Part shown: in pieces, positions 6,674 to 59,417 of the stretch
Layout of the letters: every line of letters starts with the position of its first letter
How positions within the stretch are numbered: position 1 is the stretch's first letter
Origin: Squalus acanthias
Taxonomy: Eukaryota
DNA: 64,000 nucleotides
Assembly (NCBI GenBank): GCA_030390025.1
Contig: CM059452.1
Coordinates: 8,432,001 to 8,496,000, forward strand
Direction of reading: 5' to 3'
Made by a program: the position numbers and the translations under genes
The notes under the pieces: generated by a model
Seen by the model: only the letters and a program-made list of their open reading frames with translations
The model's database searches: none
Told to the model about the DNA's origin: nothing

Positions 6674-7150
6674 ATGGGAATCCTCCTTGTTTTCACCCTG
6701 TGTGTCTGTTTACCCCGTGAGTACCGCTCAAACAAACCGACATTGTGTGGACTTAATATAAAGCTGCCCGGTCCATCCGAATTACAGACACTGTCTGGGT
6801 TTTAGCCCCGTTGTGTGGTTCGGCTCTGATGGCCCATTAAACTCTCGCTGTTTAATTTCCAGGCTCTTTCAGTCAGTCAGTGGCACAGACCCCGCCAGCG
6901 GTGACCAGGGAGGAGTGTCAGTCTCTTACCATCACCTGTGTTTTCTATGGTGGTTTTTGGGGTTATAATTTCATAATGGACATTTCTTCAGACGAACCCA
7001 GACCGGGACAGAGTGGGAGCGGATCTCGAGCGGAGGGCGATTTGTTGTGAGGAAGAGTAAGGCAGAAAATACATTTTCGTTGGAAATTCGGGATGTGCGA
7101 GTTGAAGACAGCGCCACCTATTACTGTAAAGCTGGTACAGGCGCCATCCT
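6674..7150 (+). pseudogene. NAR-TCR V (IgNAR-like V segment) with leader; 1-nt frameshift near CDR1
   Basis: Leader MGILLVFTLCVCLP 6674-6716 (gtgagt donor, phase 1); V exon from 6863: RSFSQSVAQTPPAVTREECQSLTITCVFYGGFWGYNF, then in the -1 frame NGHFFRRTQTGTEWERISSGGRFVVRKSKAENTFSLEIRDVRVEDSATYYCKAGTGAI; the ERISxGGR motif, absent CDR2 and extra FR1 Cys are NAR-TCR V hallmarks. Confidence 0.88.
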
Positions 7151-7178
7151 CACAGTGGATGAGACCTGAGCAAATACC
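7151..7178 (+). other. 12-RSS of the NAR-like V
   Basis: cacagtg + gatgagacctga (12 bp) + gcaaatacc. Confidence 0.85.
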
Positions 7179-7491: not shown

Positions 7492-7530
7492 GGTTCTTGT
7501 ACCGGGGTGACTGAGAGTGGTGTCACTGTG
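7492..7530 (+). other. 23-RSS of the NAR-type J
   Basis: ggttcttgt + 23 bp (7501-7523) + cactgtg. Confidence 0.9.
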
Positions 7531-7581
7531 GTTATTATAAACATGTGGATGGATCCGGGACGGTGGTGACTGTCACAGCCG
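7531..7581 (+). CDS. NAR-TCR J segment
   Basis: YYKHVDGSGTVVTVTA then gtaagt donor (phase 1); DGxG instead of W/FGxG, as in NAR-type Js. Confidence 0.9.
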
Positions 7582-10660: not shown

Positions 10661-10850
10661 GCCCCTCTCGCCGCCCCCCCCCCCCCCCAACCCCACGCCG
10701 GTTCATTTGCCAATGACAGTGAATAAAGTTGGAACAGGCTTCAAATGAAGAACCGCATGAGCGCGCGAGACAGAACTATTCCTGTGATTGACAAGTGTCC
10801 CCGGTAACCAACAGCCAAATAAATAACATTTCCCCATTTTAATCCCGCAG

Positions 10851-11156
10851 TTTCCAGTTTCTCGGTGTCCCAGGGTCCGCCTCTACAATCCTCTGCTGCC
10901 GGTGACACCGTTACTTTAAGCTGCGAATATTCAGGGTTCTGTCAGTACACAGTACATTGGTACCGTCAGTCCTTAGGGCAGGCTCCGAAATACCTGCTTC
11001 AGAGACACACTTCAGGAGAGGGGAATAAAGAAAACGCTGCCGGGGGCCGAATTTCTGCTTCTGTCGATGGTGCGCAGAAAATCAGCCGGTTAAACATCGC
11101 GAAACTGCAACTGAGTGACTCCGCTGTGTATTACTGTGCACTGAGTCCGCGCACAG
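10851..11156 (+). CDS. Leaderless supporting TCR-delta V of the NAR-TCR cassette (open frame)
   Basis: Acceptor ..cccgcag at 10850, phase 1 matching the NAR-J donor; VSSFSVSQGPPLQSSAAGDTVTLSCEYSGFCQYTVHWYRQSLGQAPKYLLQRHTSGEGNKENAAGGRISASVDGAQKISRLNIAKLQLSDSAVYYCALSPRTA; extra CDR1 Cys; no leader exon seen. Confidence 0.92.
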
Positions 11157-12028
11157 CACAGTGATACAGAGCACGGAGAGAGCCGTACAAAAACGTGAAC
11201 ATGGTGGGATTACAGACACACAGTGATACAGGGCACGGAGAGAGCCGTACAAAAACCTGAACATGGTGGGGATTACAGACACACAGTGATACAGAGCACG
11301 GAGAGAGTTCACAAACCTGAACATGGTGGGGATTACAGACACACAGTGATAGAGAGCACGGAGAGAGTTCACAAACCTGAACATGGTGTGGATTGCAGAC
11401 ACACAGTGATACAGAGCACGGAGAGAGTTCACAAACCTGAACATGGTGGGGATTACAGACACACAGTGATACAGAGCACGGAGAGAGTTCACAAACCTGA
11501 ACATGGTGGGGATTACAGACACACAGTGATACAGAGCACGGAGAGAGTTCACAAACCTGAACATGGTGGGGATTACAGACACACAGTGATACAGAGCACG
11601 GAGAGAGTTCACAAACCTGAACATGGTGGGGATTACAGACACACAGTGATACAGAGCACGGAGAGAGTTCACAAACCTGAACATGGTGGGGATTACAGAC
11701 ACACAGTGAGAGAGAGCACGGAGAGAGTTCACAAACCTGAACATGGTGGGGATTACAGACACACAGTGATACAGAGCACGGAGAGAGTTCACAATCCTGA
11801 ACATGGTGAGGATTACAGACACACAGTGATACAGAGCACGGAGAGAGTTCACAAACCTGAACATGGTGGGGATTACAGACACACAGTGATACAGAGCACG
11901 GAGAGAGTTCACAAACCTGAACATGGTGGGGATTACAGACACACAGTGAGAGAGAGCACGGAGAGAGTTCACAATCCTGAACATGGTGAGGATTACAGAC
12001 GCACAGTGATACAGAGCACGGAGAGAGA
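11157..12028 (+). repeat. Tandem array of 15 RSS-containing ~60-bp units
   Basis: cacagtg at 11157, 11219, 11282 and every 60 bp to 12002; unit 1 has 23 bp + acaaaaacg, unit 2 has 23 bp + acaaaaacc, units 3-14 mostly 22 bp + acaaacctg. Confidence 0.95.
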
Positions 12029-20760: not shown

Positions 20761-22555
20761 TCACACTGTTGACCGAGCTTTCAGTATCTGACCAATAAGC
20801 CGCAGGTATTTGAGTTATCCGCACAAACCAGAAGCCAGAGTTGCCCACATCAGCAGTCAGCACATTAGTTATTGTTTGTCCATCTTTGCATAGAACCCAC
20901 TGATACCCAATCAAGTTACAATGTTTAAGGATTGCCAATATTAGATATTTGGAAAAGAAATCTCTCCCGATGTTTAGATTATGTTCGGTACAAACAGCAA
21001 CAAGAAGTGACTGTAACGACCCAGGAAGCAGCGCCTGTTCTCACTGGTGGGAGGTTGGAAAGTAATTTAGAAAATGAAATGGAGCATTTAAAGAGCATCG
21101 TTGCATATAACCGGCTTTGGGAATCGTATATAATTCGGATAATTTAATTGAGTGAGTGGGAGGAGGAAAGTCAGGAGACATCCATTCAGTAGAATGGGAC
21201 AGAGGACAAGTCACACTGCATCGGTCTTCCTCCAATTCTGAGAAGGAAAGAGAGAGACTAGAATCAATCCCGATTCATCTAAATCTTGAATCTTAGAAAC
21301 CAAGCTGTGCAAAAGTTCCCTATTCAAATCTGTGCGCTAAATTATTCCGTTCACATTTTGAAGGAGACTTCAACCATTTATTGTAAACGTCCTTTATTGT
21401 CATGGGAACAAAGAAGATTTAGAGGAGGTCTGATAGAGGGGATTTTCGAATTATGAAGGGTTTTATGAAGGGATTCGGGAAACATATTTCCCCGGGTCGG
21501 TGAGTTGGTGAGTAAATGGCACTGATTGAAAATCAGCAGCAACAGAATAAAGGGAGAGGTTTTATTCTACTTTTCTACACAGGGGGCTGTTAATCATAGG
21601 ATGTCCTATCAGAAAGAGGGCTGCATGTAAAATCCACAATAGCTCGATAAAATTGAACATTTGAGAAGAAGATTGGAAATTGGAAGGTACACGGGATTGG
21701 TGGAGAGACCTTTCAGAGGTGTGATCGGCCGAATAGCCTCCTTCTGTGCTGTAACGTTGTATTATTTTATAATTCTGGTCATGCTTTATTAACGATGCTG
21801 GGATTTGTTTTAAAGGTAACACAACTAGTAGATCTAGCTGTAGGAGTTGTGTGCTTAGGAGAACTAACCCCACCGCTATTCAAACAAGTCTATCCCCTGA
21901 AAACAACAACTTGCATTTAATTAGCGCCTTTAACGTAGTAAAACGTCCCAAGACGATTCACAGGAGCGTCAGCATATAGAATCTGACACCGAGCCACATA
22001 AGGAGATATCATTTTTATTTCTTTAGTATGGTTGGTAGTTATACTGACAGTTGACCAAAAGTTTGGTGAAAGAGGTAAGTTTTAAGGCAGCATCTTACAA
22101 TGGAGAGAACACGACACTTTGATATCATGGAATGGCCTGATTCTGTGCTGATAATAAGAGGCTGACAGCAAAAGGATGTAGGGAGGAGCTCAGTGGACAG
22201 AATGTGAAAGAATCTAATGTGAAAGTGGTTGGGGAATGAGGGGAGTGTTCCACAACAGGGAATCAAGAGCTGGAGGAAGTCCACGAAACAATATTCCGGC
22301 ATTCACTCGGTATAAAGGGGCCTCATGGACAGAATGCTCCTTTCAGACTCCTGACATCTCTTATGTACAAGACTGGAGTCACATGAAGGCGTTTCACGTC
22401 GGGTCTCACAACTCACAGAAACTCAAATGCTGATCTAGGTTTGGATCGGCAAATGGTGGAATTAGTTCATTCTGTAGTCACATTTCGAGTTCTTTGGTTA
22501 TGTTATAAGCACGGATTACAGAGTCTAACTTGTTCAATTGGCCATTCTTTCCCAG

Positions 22556-22855
22556 CGACACAGTCTCCTCCCACCCTCTACGCCCTGCTCTCCTCCTGTG
22601 AACAACCCAACACCGGCGGCCCCGTCACGTACGGCTGTTTGGCGATGGACTACTTCCCGGAAATCACCAGCCTTTCCTGGAGTAAAGATAAAGAGCCGAT
22701 CACCACTGGATTGAAGACCTACCCGTCAGTGTTCAACAAGCAGGGCACCTACACCCTGAGCAGCCAGTTAACCATCACAGAGTCAGAGGTGGGGAGCAGC
22801 GCCATCTACTGCCAGGTTCGACGAAGTGGGTCGGACTGGAGCGTCCAAATGCGAG
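22556..22855 (+). CDS. IGHM: IgM heavy chain Cmu1 exon
   Basis: [100 protein letters not shown]; ag/gt borders, phase 1; shark mu CH1-like. Confidence 0.95.
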
Positions 22856-22879
22856 GTTAGTGTTGTGGGATACAGGGGG

Positions 22880-23630
22880 AAACTGTGAAAAGCAGAGAAG
22901 TTATGTTCAACTTCTATACAACTTTGTTTAGACCAGACTTAGAGTACTGTGTACAGGTCTGGTCTCCATATCACACTTAGAGCACTGTGTACAGGTCTGG
23001 TCTCCATATCACACTTAGAGCACTGTGCACAGGTCTGGTCTCCATATCGCACTTAGAGCACTGTGCACAGGTCTGGTCTCCATATCATACTGAGAGTACT
23101 GTGTACAGGTCTGGTTTCCATATTATAAGAATGATACAGAGGCACTGGAGAAGTGCAAAACTGATTGACAAGGACGAACACAGAACTGAAAAATTGTAAC
23201 TGTCAAGAATGATTGAACGGGCTTGGGATATTTTCTCTAGAAAAGAGAAGGCTGAGGGGTGACCTAATAGGGGTCTTTAAAATTATGAAGGGGTTGAAAG
23301 GTTAGACGTAGCGAAAGTATTTCTGCTTGAGGAGGAGCCCGATACTGGGGGCCATAAATATAAGATAATCACTAATAAATCCAATTGGGAATTCAGGAGA
23401 AACTTCTTTACCCAGAGAGTGGGTAGAATGTGGAACTCGCTACCACAGGGAATGGTTGAGGTGAAAAGCATAGATGCGTTTCAGGGGAATCTAGATAAGT
23501 ACAGGAGGGAGAAAGGAATAGAAGGTTATATTGATGGGGGAGATGAAGTAGGGAGAGAGGAGGCTCATGTGGAGCATAAACACCGACCTGTTGGGCCGAG
23601 TGGCCTGTTTCTGTGTTGTAGATTCTGTGT
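22880..23630 (+). mobile_element. CR1 fragment with an internal 33-bp tandem repeat (about 22940-23125)
   Basis: LVRPDLEYCVQVWSPY motif reiterated; CR1 3' end. Confidence 0.75.
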
Positions 23631-23701
23631 AAAAAACGCTTTAAAGTTCTTAATTGTTTGGATTGCAACAAATAATCCCAATAAAATGTATTTTCTTGCA
23701 G

Positions 23702-24010
23702 ATCTTGTGGTACATCATCCAACTGTGATCCTCACCCTGAGTTCCAGTGAAGAAATCATCAGCAGCAGGTCTGCAACCGCCGTGTGTTCAATCATCGATT
23801 TCCATCCAAAGGCAATGACCGTGAATTGGCTGAAGAATGGACAGCTCATGGATTCGGGCTTCGTCACCTCTCCCGTCTTTGAAGTGAACGGGAACTTCTC
23901 GGCGACCAGTCGGCTGACATTCACCGCCGGGCAATGGTTCGCCGGCTCGGTCTATACCTGCCAGGTCTCTCATAAAGGGTTCACCCAAAGCCGAAACATC
24001 ACCAGATCCG
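23702..24010 (+). CDS. IGHM: IgM Cmu2 exon
   Basis: [67 protein letters not shown]; ag/gt, phase 1. Confidence 0.95.
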
Positions 24011-24064
24011 GTAACAGACACCAGGCAGTTCCAGATAATTCTGAGCGCCGCACTCAGTCAGGAG

Positions 24065-24670
24065 TCATAAAAGCACAGAAGGATGTCATTCGGCTCATCG
24101 AGTCCGTGCCGGCTCTCTGTTGAGCAATCCAGTCAGTCCCATTCCCCAGCTCTATCTCCGTAGCCCTGCAGGTTTATTTCCCTCAAGTGCCTATCCAGTC
24201 TCCCCTTGAAAACATTGAGTGTCTCCGTTTCCACCACTTCCGTTGGCAACGAATTCCATGTTATCATCACTCTCTGCGTAAAAAAGTTTTACCTCACAAC
24301 CCCCCTGTATCTCTTGCCCAAAACCTTAAATCTGTGTCCCCTAGTCCTTGTGCCATCAACTAGTGGGTACAGCCTTTCCCCCTGTAGCCTATCCAAACCC
24401 GTCATAATCTTGTACACTTCTATCAAATCACCCCTCAACCTCCTTTGCTCTAATGAAGATAAATCCATCTTCTCCAAACTGTCCTTGTAGCTAAGATCCC
24501 CCATCCCCGGAACCATTCTGGTAAATCTCCTCTGCACACTCTCAAAGGCTTTCACATCCTTCCTAAAGTGTGGTGACCGGAACTGGACACAATGCTCCAG
24601 TTGTGGCCTGACCAGCGCTTTATAAAGCTTCAGCATAACTTCTCTACTTCTGTACTCAATACATCTATTG
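24065..24670 (-). mobile_element. CR1 fragment
   Basis: LYKALVRPQLEHCVQFRSPHF..RLRGDLIEVYKIM. Confidence 0.85.
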
Positions 24671-24964
24671 TTTTATTGGACTTTTATTGGAATTAGTAAA
24701 AAGCACAGATATATTTCTAATTTCCAATCATACAGTTTGTGTTTTATTCCGATGTCAGTGCTGACTCAGGGTTCCTCACGGTTCAGGATTCCAGCACTTC
24801 GCCAAAGGTTTCCCTCAGCTGTGATGTCAGACAGTGAGTGAGGTGTCCTTAGTCTCAGGTTTATCTTGAGTTGGCTGATCATATTCGGAGCGGCAGTAGG
24901 TGTCTGGGACCCTTTTCCCGTAACTGTCTCGGGACCCACTGCTAGAAAGGACATCTACCCTATT

Positions 24965-25510
24965 TAGAGAACTGCGTTCAATTCTGGGCACCGCCCATCA
25001 GGATGGATATACTGGCTTCAGAGGGTGCAACCCAAATTCACCCGAATCATACCGGGGCTGAAAGGGTTAAATTATGAGGACAGGTTGCACAGAATAGTCT
25101 TGTATTCCTCTGAGTATAGAAGATTAAGAGGTGATCTAATTGAGGTGTTTAAGTTGATAAATGGAATTGATAGGGGAGATAGAGAGAAACTATTTCCTCT
25201 GGTGCGCGAGTCCAGAACAAGGGGCATAACCTTAAAATTAGAACCGAGCCGTTCAGGGGTGATGTCAGGAAGCACTTCTTCACACAAAGGACAGTGGAAA
25301 TCTGGAACTCGCTCCCCCCAAATGCTGTTGAGGCTGGGGGTCAACGGAAAATTTCAAAACAGATATTGATAGATGTTTGTGAGGCAAAGGTATCAAGGGT
25401 TACAGAAACAAGGCAGGTAGATGGTGTTGAGGTGGAGATCAGCCATGATCTCATTGAATGTCGGAACAGGCTGGATGGGCTGAAGGGACTGCTCCTGTTC
25501 CTATGTTGCT
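24965..25510 (+). mobile_element. CR1 fragment
   Basis: RRLRGDLIEVFKLING..IWNSLP. Confidence 0.8.
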
Positions 25511-26208
25511 ATTACTGCCCTGCGGTCATATTTCCTTCTGACTCTCTCACCAGACATGTTAAGTGCTCACTAATGACAGAAATGAACAAACTACTTCACA
25601 TCGGCAATACACATTATTCTCCACCACAAAAGACCCCTTGGAACACCATTCTCCCGACCTTTCACTTCTCCTCTGATGGGGGCTGCAACTGGTTCCTGCA
25701 CATTTTCATCGCCCCCAAAAATCGCAACAAGGCACCAAAAAATTAATTTTGTTTCCTGTTGCACCTAAAATCCTGGACTTCATTTGACACTCGTTTTCAA
25801 CGAGTGTAATTTTCGTGTAGAGCTCTTGACCCTGGGGCGGAACCATTATAATAATCGGAAATGCGTTCGGGCACAAGGATCTACAGACGGGCGTAAAGGA
25901 GCAAGGGATTTCAGGAGGAGCGCTACTCAGTGCGTAAGACAATTGCGCCCGAATGTATTTTTTTTTTACGCCGGGTATTTGCTTCACAGCCCATTACAGG
26001 AGGCTCTGGGAGCAAATACACAGGAAATGTTAAAGAGTCTCCCGGAATCGTTGTCAATTCGTTGTCCTTCCAATAACGATGGTGTTTAAGCAACAACGAG
26101 AGGTTGATGTCTCAAAGGTGATTTATTCTCCCTGAGAGAGTGAAGGCTGAATACTGGTGTCCTGATTCTGAAGATGGAGCTTTGCTTGAATTTCATTTCT
26201 GTTCACAG

Positions 26209-26517
26209 ATGAGATCCGATACAACGATCCAGAAATCACTCTTCCGCAACCATCACTAGAACAGGTCTTACTGGAGGCGACGGTGACCTTAACCTGCGTC
26301 GTGTCTAATGCTCCTTATGGAGTCAACGTGTCCTGGACCCGAGAAAAGGAGACTTTGAAATCAGAGATTGCCGTCCAACCCGGAGAGGCTCCCAACAGCG
26401 TGATCAGCAACTTAAACATCTCGACACAAGCCTGGTTGAGTGGGGATAAGTTCTACTGCGTGGTGAGCCATCAGGATATGCCGACTCCTATAAGAGAATC
26501 CATCCACAAGGAAAAAG
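26209..26517 (+). CDS. IGHM: IgM Cmu3 exon
   Basis: [65 protein letters not shown]; ag/gt, phase 1. Confidence 0.95.
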
Positions 26518-27034
26518 GTGAGCGGTGAGATTGTAGCAATAAGTGAGATTCTGTGACTATTTCCGGTGCTTGTGCACGGGCCAATTCGTTCTATTAAGTG
26601 TTTTAATGGACTGCTATGATAATTCAATGGGTAATTCCACTAACTAAACCACCTGGACCCCAGATGATGCATTTAAGGGGAAGCTGGATAAATCAATGAG
26701 GGAAAAAGGACTAGAAGGAAGGGTTATTAGGGTTAGATGAAGTAAGGCGGGAGGAGTCTCGTGTGGAGCATAAACAGCGGCATTGACCAGTTGGGCCGAA
26801 TGGTCTGTTTCTGTGATGTAAATTCTATATAATTTTCCAGTCCAACTCTTCAAGCTCCCAGAGAAAAGGATTGGAGTCCCCTTTTCCCCGGGCTGGAAAA
26901 CCGGACAAGACACAGAGGGGAAAAGGGAATCCTTTAAAACTCAGCGCAAAGCACATTTCTCTCACATCTAACCGCCGGTTTCATTGTCTCTGGAATTCTC
27001 CAGTTTATTGACCTTTATTGTGATTGTTCTGCAG

Positions 27035-27459
27035 TTAAAGATCCGCGGGAACCGTCCGTGTCTGTCCTCCTGCCCCCGGCAGAAGAAGTCTCCGCTCAGA
27101 GGTTCGTCAGCCTCACCTGCTTAGTGAGAGGTTTCTCCCCCCGAGAGATCTTCGTCAAGTGGACCGTCAATGACAAGCCGGTGAATTCCGGCAACTACAA
27201 GAACACCGAGGTGATGGCGGAGAACGGCAGCAGTTCCTTCTTCATGTACAGCCTGTTATCCATTGCAGCGGAGGAGTGGGCCAGCGGCGCTTCTTACTCC
27301 TGTGTGGTGGGACATGAAGCGATCCCCTTGAAGATCATCAACAGAACGGTTAATAAATACAGCGGTAAACCCAGTTTTGTCAACATTTCCCTTGTTCTGA
27401 TGGACACCGTCAATTCTTGTCAACTAGAATCTCTCGATTGCATTTCAGTTCTTAAATAA
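27035..27459 (+). CDS. IGHM: IgM Cmu4 exon plus secretory tailpiece (membrane-form donor after 27364)
   Basis: [97 protein letters not shown]; aataaa at about 27455 and 27465. Confidence 0.95.
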
Positions 27460-40759: not shown

Positions 40760-41221
40760 AGTCCCAGGGCGCAGTAATACACGGCAGCGTCAGTCAGCTG
40801 CAGCCCGGAGATGGTTAAACTGGTGAATTTAGTCGAGGTCTGGAGCACAGCAGAGAAACGGGTTTTAGCAAAATCTGCTTTATCTTCAGAACCGCTCGAG
40901 TATTTCCACAGAATAAACTCGCGCTGTGTGTCTGGGTGTTGCCGGTACCAGTATAAATAATAGCCGCTCACTGTAGTATCATAGGTACAGGTTAAAGTCA
41001 CCGCTTCTCCTTCTGTCTTAACTCCTGAGGACAGCGGCTGAGTGACAGAATCTCCAAGACTCAGATCTGAAAAACATGTTCAAACAGGAAAAGATCAGAC
41101 CGGCAGGTGTTTAAAATTCAGATTTAAATCATATCAGAAATGAGAGAAAAGATGAAATGTGGTTGGCCCTCAATTACCTGTCAGAAATGCCCCACACAGC
41201 CCAGATGCTGAGTAGCCGCAT
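40760..41221 (-). pseudogene. TCR delta/alpha V gene; V exon open but leader has +1 nt
   Basis: V exon 41066-40760: DLSLGDSVTQPLSSGVKTEGEAVTLTCTYDTTVSGYYLYWYRQHPDTQREFILWKYSSGSEDKADFAKTRFSAVLQTSTKFTSLTISGLQLTDAAVYYCALG; leader 41221-41178 is 44 nt (phase 2); removing one G from the gggg run gives MRLLSIWAVWAFLT in phase 1. Confidence 0.85.
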
Positions 41222-45990: not shown

Positions 45991-48813
45991 ATGCACGTCC
46001 CGCCCGAAGGCCCGGTCTATGCCATTTACTACACTGCCCTTGCAGCTATCGCTGTTCCAGGTAAAGTACTGCAGCAAGCTAGTCATTAATTAATGGATTG
46101 TTAGCTGTTATCTCCTAGTGCTGGAATACCAACGCCCTGGTCAGACCGCATCTGAAGTACTGTGTTCAGTTCTGGGCACCGCAACTCAGGAAGAATTCAT
46201 TGGCCTTGGAGGAGGTGCAGGGCAGATTCGCTACAATGATACCGGGGCTTAGAGGGTTAAATTATGAGGACAGGTTGCATAAACGTGGTTTGAATTCCCT
46301 GAGAATAGAAGATCAAGAGGTGTTTACGATGATAGGGTAGATAGAGAGAAACTTTTCCTCTGGCGACAGAATCCAGAACAAAGGGGCATAACCTTAAAAT
46401 TAGAGCTCGGCCGTTCAGGGGTGAAGTGAGGAAACACTTCTTCACACAAAGGGTAGTGTAAAACTGGATCTCTATCTCCAAAAATTCTGTTGAGACTAGG
46501 GCAATTGAAAATGTCAAAACTCAGATTGAGAGATTTTTTTTAGGCATGGGCATTAAGCGATACGGAACCGAGGCGGGTAAATGGAGTTAAGATTCACATC
46601 AGCCATGATTTAGTTGAAAGGCGGAGCACGCTAGATGGGCTGAATGGCCTCCTCTTGCTCCTAGTTTCCTAATCTGTTTAGCGGCTGTGAAACAGGCAGT
46701 GAACTCCAACATGTGTAATATTGTGAAAAATGCAGTAACTTTGCCCACATGTTCAAAGTCCATCCCACCATTAAACTGAAGAACCCGCAGATCATGTGAG
46801 TGGAAGATAAGGTTGGGGAACTTGGTATCCTGGCCATCTCAAAATTGAACAGGCCACGAGAATACAAAGGGCCAACAATTAATGGACATGACTGTATGAC
46901 GTGAATGGAATTGCTATTTGTCTTGAGTTAACATTTATTTTTACCAGATTTAATACCGATTCAGAAATATGTCGTTCCTGGCTGAATTTCTCAAATGCTT
47001 TTATCACTAACTGCTTTGATTAAATAATTAATAAATTAAGATTTGGTGAGTTCATTCAATAAGTAATGAAATTGTGATTTGGTGTTAAGGAATTAACTTA
47101 TTGCAGTAAGTTATAGCTCATTGTTATTGATAATTCACAACAATGAAGTACGTGACTGGATTCAAGAATAGCCCATTTCCCAGGAACTTCCATCCCGGGC
47201 TCCCTGCTCGGTTTCTCTCTCCCTGCTCTCCCCATCCGTTCGGTTTATCTCTCCCTGCTCTCCCCATCCGTTCGGTTTATCTCTCCCTGCTCTCCCCATC
47301 CGTTCGGTTTATCTCTCCCTGCTCTCCCCATCCGTTCGGTTTTTCTCTCTCCCCGCTCCCCCCATCCGTTCGGTTTATCTCTCCCCGCTCCCCCCATCCG
47401 TTCGGTTTATCTCTCTCCCCGCTCTCCCCATCCCTTCGGTTTATCTCTCTCCCCGCTCTCCCCATCCCTTCGGTTTATCTCTCCCTGCTCTCCCCATCCG
47501 TTCGGTTTATCTCTCCCCGCTCTCCCCATCCGTTCGGTTTATCTTTTCCCGGTTTCCCCATCCGTTCGGTTTATCTCTCTCCCCGCTCCCCCCATCCGTT
47601 CGGTTTATCTCTCCCCGCTCCCCCCATCCGTTCGGTTTATCTCTCTCCCCGCTCTCCCCATCCGTTCGGTTTATCTCTCTCCCCGCTCTCCCCATCCGTT
47701 CGGTTTATCTCTCTCCCTGCTCGACCCATCCGTTCCGTTTATCTCTCCCTGCTCTCCCCATCCGTTCGCTTTATCTCTCTCCCTGCTCCCCCCATCCGTT
47801 CGGTTTATCTCGCCCTGCTCTCCCCATCTCTGACCAATAATTCCGTTAAATATATTCCTTCTGCTGGGAGTGTACTCTGTAACTTCTCTTCTTTCGCTCT
47901 CTTTCTTACAGTTAATTTAGTGGCGATTGTGATCCTATCCCGAGGAAGGTGCGGTCTCTCCAGATGTATCACTCGGTACCTGGTGTCCATGGCGGTGACG
48001 GATCTCCTGGTAATTATCACTGCTGTGATATTAAACCGGATTCCGAGCATTTATTTTCCAGGTAGCTTCCTGTCCATTACTCCCGTATGTAGCCTCAGCA
48101 TTGCGTTAATTTATGCAGCCAGAGACAGTTCTGTCTGGTTAACAGTCACTTTCACCTTTGATCGATTTGTAGCCATTTGTTGCCAGAAGCTGAAGGCAAA
48201 ATATTGCACCGAGAAAACGGCGGCTGTTGTTATAGGAACGGTTTGTGCGCTGGGATGTTTTAAAAGCGTTCCCTGGTATTTTATATACGAACCCATCTAC
48301 ATAATTAACAATGTCCCGTGGTATTGCAGACAGAAGGATATCCGTTATACTTCGCTTGTATGGACAGTATTTGATTGGTCTGATCGTCTTTTAACCCCAT
48401 GTCTCCCGTTCTTCCTAATATTGCTGCTCAATGCTCTGACCGTCAGATACATTCTAGCAGCCAGTAGAGCCCGCAGGAGACTCCGGGCCAACAGCAATGG
48501 AGAGAATCAGAGTGACCCAGAGATGGAAAGCCGGAGAAAATCCATCGTTTTACTCTTCGCCATTTCGGGTAGTTTCATCCTGTTGTGGATGACGTATGTT
48601 GGACAATTCTTTTATGAGCGATTTACAATTGATTATAAAATCAACGGTTTCAGTGACCCCAAATTTATCCTCCTAGAAAGCGCAAATATGCTTCAGCTGT
48701 TGAGTTGCTGCACAAACACGTTTATTTATGCAGTGACTCAGAGCAAATTCAGGGAGCAGTTAAAGAATATGGTGCGATATCCGCTGGGCCCCATAGGTAA
48801 ATTAATTAAATAA
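45991..48813 (+). CDS. GPR139/GPR142-like class A GPCR, two exons (45991-46060, 47912-48813), 323 aa, intact
   Basis: MHVPPEGPVYAIYYTALAAIAVP|VNLVAIVILSRGRCGLSRCITRYLVSMAVTDLL..SVWLTVTFTFDRFVAICC..PFFLILLLNALT..CTNTFIYAVTQSKFR; seven hydrophobic segments; phase-1 gt/ag intron. Confidence 0.9.
46130..46670 (+). mobile_element. CR1 fragment in the GPCR intron
   Basis: LVRPHLKYCVQFWAP; CR1 3' UTR. Confidence 0.75.
47200..47830. repeat. ~33-35-bp pyrimidine-rich minisatellite (tccccatccgttcggtttatctctccctgctc)n
   Basis: Tandem units inside the GPCR intron. Confidence 0.95.
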
Positions 48814-56080: not shown

Positions 56081-56167
56081 TGATATATCGGAGTTGTGTC
56101 GATATACTTTGGATGGCAGAATCCACTGTATGTTCTTTGGGAGTTACCTAACCAACACTAAGCTTTG

Positions 56168-56186
56168 CAGCGGTAGGTGGCGCTTT
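56168..56186 (+). promoter_or_regulatory. CTCF-like motif
   Basis: cagcggtaggtggcgcttt. Confidence 0.45.
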
Positions 56187-56549
56187 ATTCAATCCCCAGA
56201 TCCTTCATTCCCAAAGTAAACCACTTCCTTTCTTTGTTGACTGATTCAACAAATCGTCCTCCAAGAGGAATGTTTTCCGACTGTGATTTCCTTCTGGATA
56301 CCGATAGTTTACCCAATTTCTAGTCACCGTGGAAATTCCAGGTGCTGGTGACAGACTGATGATCCTTCTACTCACTAAAATTGGTCTCTATTATTCTCTG
56401 ACTGAAGTCACCTGAAAGGGAAACAAGTCCAGCGAGTCTATTTAAAGAGACTTCAATATCCAATAATACTGTTAGACGAATAGCAAGAGAGCGCTACAAT
56501 CCGAATACATTAAAGCAAGCGCTGCAATCGAGTACATTATATCAAGCAC

Positions 56550-58277: not shown

Positions 58278-59417
58278 TGTACGACACAGAAGTAGGTCGC
58301 GGTGTCTGTCAGAAGTAAGGCCGCGATAGTCAGGGAGCTGCGATGCTCCGAACTTCGACTGACGGCTGTGAATCGACCTTTATGTTCACCCTTTTCCGAT
58401 GCCATTATCAACAGCTTTGGGCTCTGGTTTGGAGGCTGCACGTACCAGTATATCGCGGTGAACGGAGTGGTTGTGTGACAGTTCATCGATATGGTTTTCC
58501 ATTCACTGGGAGTCTGTGACGGAAATGTTTGTACAACTTCCTCTTTACCTGTGAAAAACAATGTTATTAATGGAGCAAAGCTGACAACACCAGTCAGTTC
58601 CAAAAGATATCTCAGGAATATAGCCGTTCCCGATTAGAGGGGATATTTTCTCCATTTCTAACGTATCGAATACGTTTAACATTTGAAAATCCTCAATATT
58701 TTTACACAAGGGAATACAACCCAAGTTTATGCAACCTGTCCTCATAATTTAATGTTCTATGCCCCGTTATCATTCTGGTGAATCTGCGCTGTAACCGCTG
58801 CAAGGCCAATCTATCCTTCCTGAGGTGCGGTGCCCAGATCTGAACGCAGTTCTCCAGATGCGGTCTAACCGGAGCTTTACACAATGGAAGCAGAACTTTC
58901 AGCCCTTTGTATTCCAGCCCCCGCGAGATAAAGACCAACATTCCATTAGCCCCTTTGAATGCACTTTGTACACGTCTAGTTGCTTTTAATGATTTGTGTG
59001 CTTGGGCTCCTAATTCACTTTGCACCTCGACAATACCTAGTTTCTCACCATTTAGAAAGTACTCCGATTTATCTTTCTTAGGTCCAGGGTGGATGTCCTC
59101 ACCTTTACCCACGTTAACTTCAATATGCCCCAGTTTTGCTCACTCATTTAATCTATCAACTTCCTCCTTATATCTGCACTACTTACTTACTGGCCCTACT
59201 AATTTAATGTCATCTACAAATTTGGATATACAACTCTCTGTTCCTTAATCCAAGTCATTAATAAATATGATAATAAATATCTGTACCCATCTCCAGGGAC
59301 ACAGTGTAATGTAACTGGACACGAACTGTCGCTGTTAGCTCACACAGTTCAAAACTTACCTGTCATAAAGCTGACTGGAATAAGAAGCATTAACATCCAT
59401 CTGAAAATCTCTTGCAT
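58278..59417 (-). CDS. Apparently functional TCR alpha/delta V gene (leader 59417-59360, V exon 58548-58278)
   Basis: MQEIFRWMLMLLIPVSFMT|GKEEVVQTFPSQTPSEWKTISMNCHTTTPFTAIYWYVQPPNQSPKLLIMASEKGEHKGRFTAVSRSSEHRSSLTIAALLLTDTATYFCVV; phase-1 intron; CRE-like tgacatca near 59562. Confidence 0.9.
58700..59270 (-). mobile_element. CR1 fragment in the leader intron
   Basis: APVRPHLENCVQIWAPHLRKD. Confidence 0.8.

Follow-up and report, generated by a model that had tools for sequence, protein, structure and literature searches.

A minisatellite built on a recombination signal behind the NAR-TCR supporting Vδ genes of Squalus acanthias

The repeat and its cassette

V segments carry, as a rule, one recombination signal sequence (RSS) each. 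In the 64,000-bp window of the Squalus acanthias genome analyzed here, the last base of a V exon (10851-11156) adjoins a whole stack of heptamers, which raises the question of whether the extra copies act as signals for RAG or are a repeat that happens to have been made from one. TRF reports a tandem array at 11157-12027 with a period of 60, 14.4 copies, 96% matches, and a score of 1555. Between 11157 and 12002 there are 15 perfect CACAGTG heptamers, the number given by an earlier sequence-only reading of this DNA and here counted as assembled; in the whole window the heptamer occurs 32 times, compared to an expected 11.2 ± 3.2. The 15 copies resolve into two full RSSs, 12 shortened ones, and one stub. 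With head-to-tail units in the range of 10-100 bp, variant repeats, and a copy number that varies between paralogs and between twin cassettes, the array is a variable-number tandem repeat. Tandem repeats make up 13% of the window, in 20 arrays. The cassette and its array are laid out as follows, all on the plus strand unless stated.

6674..6717, +: NAR-TCR V leader exon, its end approximate, MGILLVFTLCVCLP; matches at 88% the leader in a horn-shark NAR-TCR model
6864..7150, +: NAR-TCR V with D germline-joined; one base fewer than in the twin cassette, which shifts the frame
7151..7178, +: 12-RSS on the 3' side of the NAR D, CACAGTG-12-GCAAATACC
7492..7581, +: 23-RSS (7492-7530, minus strand), CACAGTG-23-ACAAGAACC, and NAR J segment (7531-7581)
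10851..11156, +: supporting Vδ exon with splice acceptor, CDR1 cysteine, and open frame; Pfam V-set, 8e-17
11157..11218, +: array copy 1, the gene's own 23-RSS (11157-11195) and a 23-nt linker, 62 bp; nonamer score 15.1
11219..11281, +: array copy 2, a second canonical 23-RSS in a 63-bp "A" unit; consensus heptamer and nonamer, spacer 23, score 19.2
11282..12001, +: array copies 3-14, twelve 60-bp "b" units with perfect heptamer and the nonamer homologue moved to spacer 20; score -14 to -16 at spacers 22-24
12002..12027, +: array copy 15, a 26-bp terminal stub of heptamer and 19 nt of spacer, then the 3' flank shared by the family

By its sequence, the V at 10851-11156 is the supporting Vδ of a NAR-TCR, in agreement with the sequence-only reading. 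It has a cysteine in CDR1 (SCEYSGFCQY), a residue that PMC1845163 describes as conserved in NAR-TCR-associated Vδ; a NAR V-(D)-J lies upstream, in the same order in 18 of 18 cassettes; and two-V models from numerous sharks and rays have a second V that is 65-85% identical to it. The splice acceptor is at 10849-10850, homologous models splice J to V, and no leader match was found between the NAR J and the supporting V in this cassette. The same arrangement, a NAR V-D-J and then a second V that carries a cysteine in CDR1 and undergoes its own rearrangement to TCRδ D and J segments, is described for cartilaginous fish in excerpts of PMC1845163, PMC6795676, PMC5931798, and PMC12227049. Those excerpts are silent on repeated signals, whereas in the family examined here a minisatellite with the RSS as its unit follows every intact member found.

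The window's NAR V lacks both its 22-RSS and the 5' 12-RSS of the D, unlike unjoined paralogs, so V and D are joined in the germline. Near position 6970 it is one C shorter than the open frame of the twin (L054) and hence out of frame; the missing C may be a true lesion or an assembly error. The twin's frame reads TREEC, with a cysteine in the a-b loop, and HFFRRT, without the W of WYRK. The NAR J reads YYKHVDGSGTVVTVTA, then a GT donor. A germline-joined NAR V lies directly upstream of the supporting V in 10 of the 18 cassettes, as V-D in four and V-D-J in six (window 6864-7178; L054, L056, L062, L063, L066, L067, and L089-L091), and five of the six V-D-J joints have nearly the same CDR3. Ahead of a constant exon, the D-J region on contig C911 holds a single D (GGGATACG, 12/23) and, each with a 12-RSS, 14 distinct J; no D or J was found at C911:345-545 kb.

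Elsewhere in the window, four C1-set exons with a secretory tail (22387-27459) and a transmembrane-like exon (about 32400) follow the cassette in the same orientation. We take the C1-set exons to be IgM-like from their sequence features. Neither a V nor a strong RSS was detected in the interval from the array to the exons, which might form an orphan constant region that serves the NAR V-J as a splice partner. CTCF-like motifs at 1708, 3793, and 4257 lie shortly behind the signals of two V remnants (1627 and 3729), the second of which is interrupted by a LINE fragment. Two further TCR-type V segments carry single 23-RSSs (40760-41079 and 58278-58633), a NAR-V-like match lies at about 56161-56424 on the minus strand, and a single-exon rhodopsin-family GPCR frame (47900-48813) stands behind a 32-bp minisatellite.

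Signal quality of the copies

Copies 1 and 2 consist of a heptamer, a 23-bp spacer, a nonamer (ACAAAAACG in copy 1, ACAAAAACC in copy 2), and a linker. The earlier reading of the unit, as the 23-RSS of the V gene itself followed by a short flank, therefore stands, although the flank is 23-24 nt in these copies and not about 22 nt. Scoring each copy had also been proposed, and we did so with a position weight matrix built from 40 of the 41 distinct signals of other V families in the same region, leaving out one with four nonamer mismatches. On the nonamer side, copies 1 and 2 reach 15.1 and 19.2 bits, compared to a leave-one-out median of 17.6 and a minimum of 4.5 bits for the 40 ordinary V signals. 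At spacers 22-24, the scores of copies 3-14 drop to -14 to -16, which 39% of random flanks also attain, and no nonamer above background was found in copies 3-15 at spacer 23 ± 1. Since only copies 1 and 2 combine a CAC heptamer, a spacer of 23 ± 1, and a nonamer, they are predicted to be the only true 23-RSSs of the array. The better nonamer of copy 2 was seen correctly but carries little weight, because both scores fall within the ordinary V range and the near-identical twin cassette has a consensus nonamer in its copy 1.

The b units had been read as signals with a 22-bp spacer. The letters at that distance are as reported (ACAAACCTG in 10 copies, ACAATCCTG in two), but the register is not, as the homologue of the nonamer, TCACAAACC, sits at spacer 20, where it keeps seven of nine nonamer positions and scores 8.0 bits. 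Relative to a full RSS, the b unit has a 3-bp spacer deletion and two substitutions in the nonamer; the amplified unit is thus an RSS three bases too short. Spacers of the other V signals are 23 or 24 in 58 of 58, and the NAR V uses 22. Copy 15 has no nonamer. The b units do retain a perfect heptamer with the preferred AT beside it, and beyond CAC they match at 9 of 13 positions at spacer 22 and at six at spacer 23. Nine matches is the cutoff for a strong site at spacer 12 or 23 in PMC11153149, which also reports that bare CAC sites join at a very low level; PMC10536018 states that the nonamer is not absolutely required for cleavage, and in mouse, heptamers without a nonamer are cut at a low level.

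The V reading frame ends RTAQ*, with the TGA spanning the end of heptamer 1, just as the sequence-only reading had it. Its corollary is also correct: joins at distal copies would retain the in-frame TGA and leave the proximal signals intact.

Several other identities for the unit were considered and rejected. Read as a 12-RSS, it scores -5 to -12 at spacers 11-13. Tandem TCRδ D segments do not fit, as the linker shares only GGGAT with the D, there is no 5' 12-RSS, and the spacer is unrelated; a hybrid joint with D as the origin of the linker has the wrong orientation and, again, an unrelated spacer. An RSS-associated CTCF element or CTCF spacer was dismissed because the best CTCF-like match in the unit has four mismatches to the consensus and the same consensus finds none within 300 bp behind 16 arrays (one of 16 within 3 kb). 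By eye, the consensus unit has no TGTGGT core that would link it to RUNX1. A PDB search matched only generic antibody V domains. The second commonest variant, at unit position 11 (414 of 2,126 units), creates TGATAG, a GATA-type motif that is probably due to chance.

Distribution within the family and beyond

Among the 150 of 1,515 candidates scored in a genome search, 18 paralogs of the supporting V stood at 88-99% identity, the next candidate reaching 47%. An array follows all 18 intact paralogs found, with 15, 20, 33, 35, 5, 11, 3, 6, 625, 7, 3, 43, 17, 28, 570, 21, 25, and 97 units. The comparison of paralogs thus does away with the idea of a device tuning only this cassette, and, as the 18 genes share descent, it points to one origin and not 18. 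The arrays of 625 and 570 units run to contig ends (37 and 34 kb), so that their counts are lower bounds, and a 607-unit array begins where the assembly has a gap, the assembled sequence there containing no V. Of the three longest arrays, the one at C29:6051831-6089072 measures 37 kb, begins at a gap of 200 N, and contains two identical SINE-like insertions of 410 bp; those on C210 and C3620 end at contig ends. Two of the three may be one array of 70 kb or more. Cassettes whose supporting V has an open frame differ about 200-fold in unit number, from 3 to at least 625. One truncated V is followed by five units, and four cassettes without a V (L069-L072) keep one and a half units, the V having been lost at a breakpoint inside the first remaining unit. 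That remnant comprises a nonamer, the linker, and a terminal unit in which spacer 26 is followed by the nonamer-like ACAAATATT, a hint that a full second signal may once have stood where the terminal stub is now.

Altogether the family carries about 2,180 units, or about 130 kb. All 1,167 unit-junction matches in the genome fall within 24 loci of the supporting-V family (including one array separated from its 5' side by a gap), and this genome-wide junction search found no copies away from the family, which removes a dispersed satellite from consideration. Nor does the repeat stand behind any of 56 testable signals of other V genes; these come from 58 signals, two of which had under 50 bp of flank, at 48 loci (12 supplied and 36 hand-picked) from the remaining 132 candidates. 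Four of these signals have one further heptamer within 400 bp.

The window's cassette and its twin (L031, L054; C29:9.54-9.56 Mb) lie 1.1 Mb apart in inverted orientation and are 99.5% identical over 10.8 kb, with 15 units in the window's array compared to 20 in the other; they may be a recent duplication or an uncollapsed haplotype. Their single-base differences fall in short runs, and three of the longest arrays stop where a contig does or at a gap, both of which might suggest an artefact of assembly. However, variant patterns differ unit by unit and between paralogs, and the unit together with its head-to-tail junction occurs in contigs of independent public runs under seven organism labels. 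An assembly artefact is for this reason exceedingly improbable as an account of the class.

These contigs came from 8 of 23 listed public runs, compared with a 3-unit paralog (L036). The 60-bp unit type is present in seven, each under a different organism label, some of them close relatives, and was not found in the eighth, which we guess to be RNA. In the seven runs, unit bins are roughly 15- to over 500-fold deeper than V bins, a depth that does not give copy number. In run X17, guessed to be RNA, the V is deeply covered, coverage drops across the RSS, and at least one contig leaves the V end into other sequence; this single contig, from another organism, fits a join at copy 1.

Read-through gene models extend the comparison, with 12 tails fitted to the unit by minimum codon mismatch. 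Back-translated predicted proteins indicate a second unit in Rhincodon, Stegostoma, Hemiscyllium (up to three units), and the ray Pristis, and the start of one only in the sawshark Pristiophorus; the tail in Chiloscyllium is too short to show it. By the same approach, model P0064 implies five units with a period of 61 and near-canonical signals, and the extra signals of P0051 also look near-canonical, so crippling of the extra signals is not universal. In models from whale, zebra, and epaulette sharks, the second heptamer often back-translates with CAC broken, as it starts with Gln or Tyr codons in several carpet-shark models. From these models we infer that a second unit stood behind the RSS before sharks and rays split, dated to 306 Ma (252-387) or 261 Ma in PMC3692497, and the stack looks to be about 250-300 million years old.

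Turnover, origin, and possible roles

Within the arrays, canonical 63-bp units are rare. They account for 11 of 2,138 internal units, in 6 of 18 arrays with one to three each, all within the first 22 units; the shortened form makes up 99.5%, 12 of the 18 arrays have no extra canonical unit, and eight further internal units reach the score threshold at spacer 22. Across 2,126 internal 60-bp units, the heptamer window is no more conserved than the rest of the unit, ranking 8 of 60 by distinct changes and 13 by all changes, on the conserved side but not significantly (Mann-Whitney p = 0.12 and 0.30), and heptamer changes spread as often as changes elsewhere (singleton-versus-spread p = 1.0). Among arrays of seven or more units, the b consensus differs at no position in 91 pairs, while divergence amounts to 11.5% in the 3' flanks (45 pairs), 9.9% in the introns, and 4.9% in the V exons. 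Such identity requires either exchange between arrays or selection. Because it spans the whole unit and not the positions that RAG contacts, exchange is favored over selection for RAG binding. Variant units are also common to several arrays. Array length shows no link with the joining state of the NAR V among the 18 cassettes (Kruskal p = 0.75).

The array had also been suggested to be neutral slippage. In a simple simulation of neutral slippage with copy 1 held fixed and roughly one event for each unit, 34% of arrays gain an extra A unit and A units make up 5%, approximating the 6 of 18 arrays and the 11 of 242 units (in arrays of up to 43 units) observed. With more turnover, the model predicts that the canonical type takes over, which exchange with giant b arrays or selection could prevent. 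The purely local version of slippage is an incomplete account, as the array is tied to one V family, is apparently old, and shares its consensus despite flank divergence of about 11%. Selection against extra canonical copies, as a danger to the NAR D 12-RSSs, found no support: of the eight unjoined cassettes, three carry extra A units, nor does the simulation call for it.

We propose, with a probability of roughly 0.55, that the array is a passenger minisatellite, homogenized between cassettes and grown from an old short stack. This reading rests on the 2 of 15 copies that are RSS-grade and the background scores of b units at spacers 22-24, on the scarcity of canonical internal units without heptamer-specific conservation, and on a wide copy-number range that differs even between twins and is unlinked to joining state. 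The SINE-like insertions inside one long array, the tandem-repeat share of the window, the near agreement of the simulation with the observed A units, and the broken CAC of carpet-shark second heptamers point the same way. Against it stand the restriction to one family (18 of 18 compared to 0 of 56), the identical consensus, the apparent age, and the near-canonical units of P0064; the nine matches at spacer 22 and the low-level cutting of nonamer-less heptamers in mouse may also count against it. The unit is the supporting Vδ's own 23-RSS plus a 24-nt linker, and under the passenger reading it would have multiplied from an old stack of two to a few copies. A 60-bp variant that had lost three spacer bases and two nonamer bases would have taken over by slippage and unequal exchange, and exchange between cassettes would keep its consensus identical. 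RAG is predicted to join the gene through copy 1, paired with the 12-RSS of D or J. The 60-bp units would be at most weak cryptic heptamers, rarely cut, so array length would cost little, and the array could grow and shrink cheaply in a region rich in tandem repeats. Extra 63-bp copies such as copy 2 would compete with copy 1; a join at copy 2 would be non-productive, keeping the TGA, and would leave copy 1 usable for a later V-to-J join.

The sink, landing-pad, and stepwise-rearrangement ideas of the sequence-only reading all require that copies be RAG targets. Only copy 2 is RSS-grade here, and the 11 of 2,138 canonical units, the range of array length, and the lack of heptamer conservation tell against them. 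As a landing pad or scanning brake, extra heptamers with displaced nonamers would bind or stall RAG beside the real signal, raising the use of an apparently leaderless supporting V that must rearrange in step with the NAR V, and giant arrays would be an overshoot of a useful short stack. The strict family restriction suits this explanation, as do the apparent age of the stack in sharks and a ray and the fact that none of the 18 intact genes has fewer than three units; so do the near-canonical signals indicated for P0064 and P0051 and b units that keep the heptamer, its AT, and the 8.0-bit nonamer remnant. Units more uniform than their flanks are why we still regard a RAG-recruiting role as possible, if doubtful. 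Its difficulties are a heptamer without specific conservation, a 200-fold length range unlinked to cassette state, an apparently broken CAC in the second unit of several carpet-shark models, and the missing CTCF-like motif in the unit or close behind the arrays. More speculatively, and with less confidence, the stack could be an elasmobranch cis-element of cut-poor signals, kept since before the shark-ray split, that loads or stalls RAG and couples both NAR-TCR rearrangements, its length a heritable dial on NAR-TCR usage.

It is improbable that the array is a decoy or sink in which distal copies capture the 12-RSSs of Dδ or Jδ in non-productive joins, lowering or delaying use of the cassette, after which copy 1 could still join a downstream J. 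Copy 2 has the sequence of a perfect 23-RSS, one to three such extra units occur in 6 of 18 arrays, and the single D and 14 J of C911 would offer partners, their 12-RSSs allowing a second V-to-J join under the 12/23 rule; nevertheless, two-thirds of the arrays have no extra canonical unit, nearly all internal units are shortened, and a distal join gives no new coding product. Quite improbable, too, is a role without RAG in which the arrays are homology blocks for unequal exchange or gene conversion in the birth, death, and homogenization of NAR-TCR cassettes. The identical consensus, shared variant units, the inverted twin, and the four V-less cassettes broken inside the first remaining unit are as this would predict. 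However, other V families of the region are multi-copy without arrays. Homology between the twins extends well past the array on both sides, so the twin duplication did not break within it.

How the first duplication arose may involve RAG itself. Germline RAG activity is described in sharks (PMC2193156), and the 5' edge of the array at the RAG cut site, together with the 10 of 18 germline-joined cassettes, makes such an origin possible. Slippage is an option too, given the short ACAG match that flanks the junction on each side, and a search for a RAG-made first duplication found no joint structure, P or N bases, or donor. Among known systems, the mouse gamma-satellite is likewise a tandem repeat with RSS-like sites. 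Of three of its cryptic 23-RSSs put to the test, two gave weak recombination, and cells showed breaks (Cowell 2003, PMC2193808). In contrast to that dispersed repeat, whose RSS likeness is tied to no gene segment, the shark array starts exactly at the heptamer of a V gene, derives from it, and occurs nowhere else in the genome. Studies of RAG scanning (PMC11153149; bioRxiv 10.64898/2026.09.01.748595) describe cryptic RSSs with bare CAC and very low-level joins, the expected ceiling for b units, but those are scattered chance motifs and the array sets hundreds of phased perfect heptamers beside a true signal.

No published description of the array was found in a literature search that covered part of the key NAR-TCR papers. 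New here are the full census, the exclusivity, the arrays of 30 kb and more, the placing of the nonamer homologue at spacer 20, the tests of conservation, and the signs of a second unit in a ray. The 30-kb-plus arrays coincide with three assembly breaks at the locus. From 3 to over 600 phased heptamers, the family forms a natural dose series for asking what spare or nonamer-poor signals do to RAG, whether they attract it, stall it, or distract it. Should the array prove inert, spacer length would strictly shield the locus against perfect heptamers in their hundreds; should it prove active, it would be a new kind of control element for the sharks' only two-rearrangement TCR chain.
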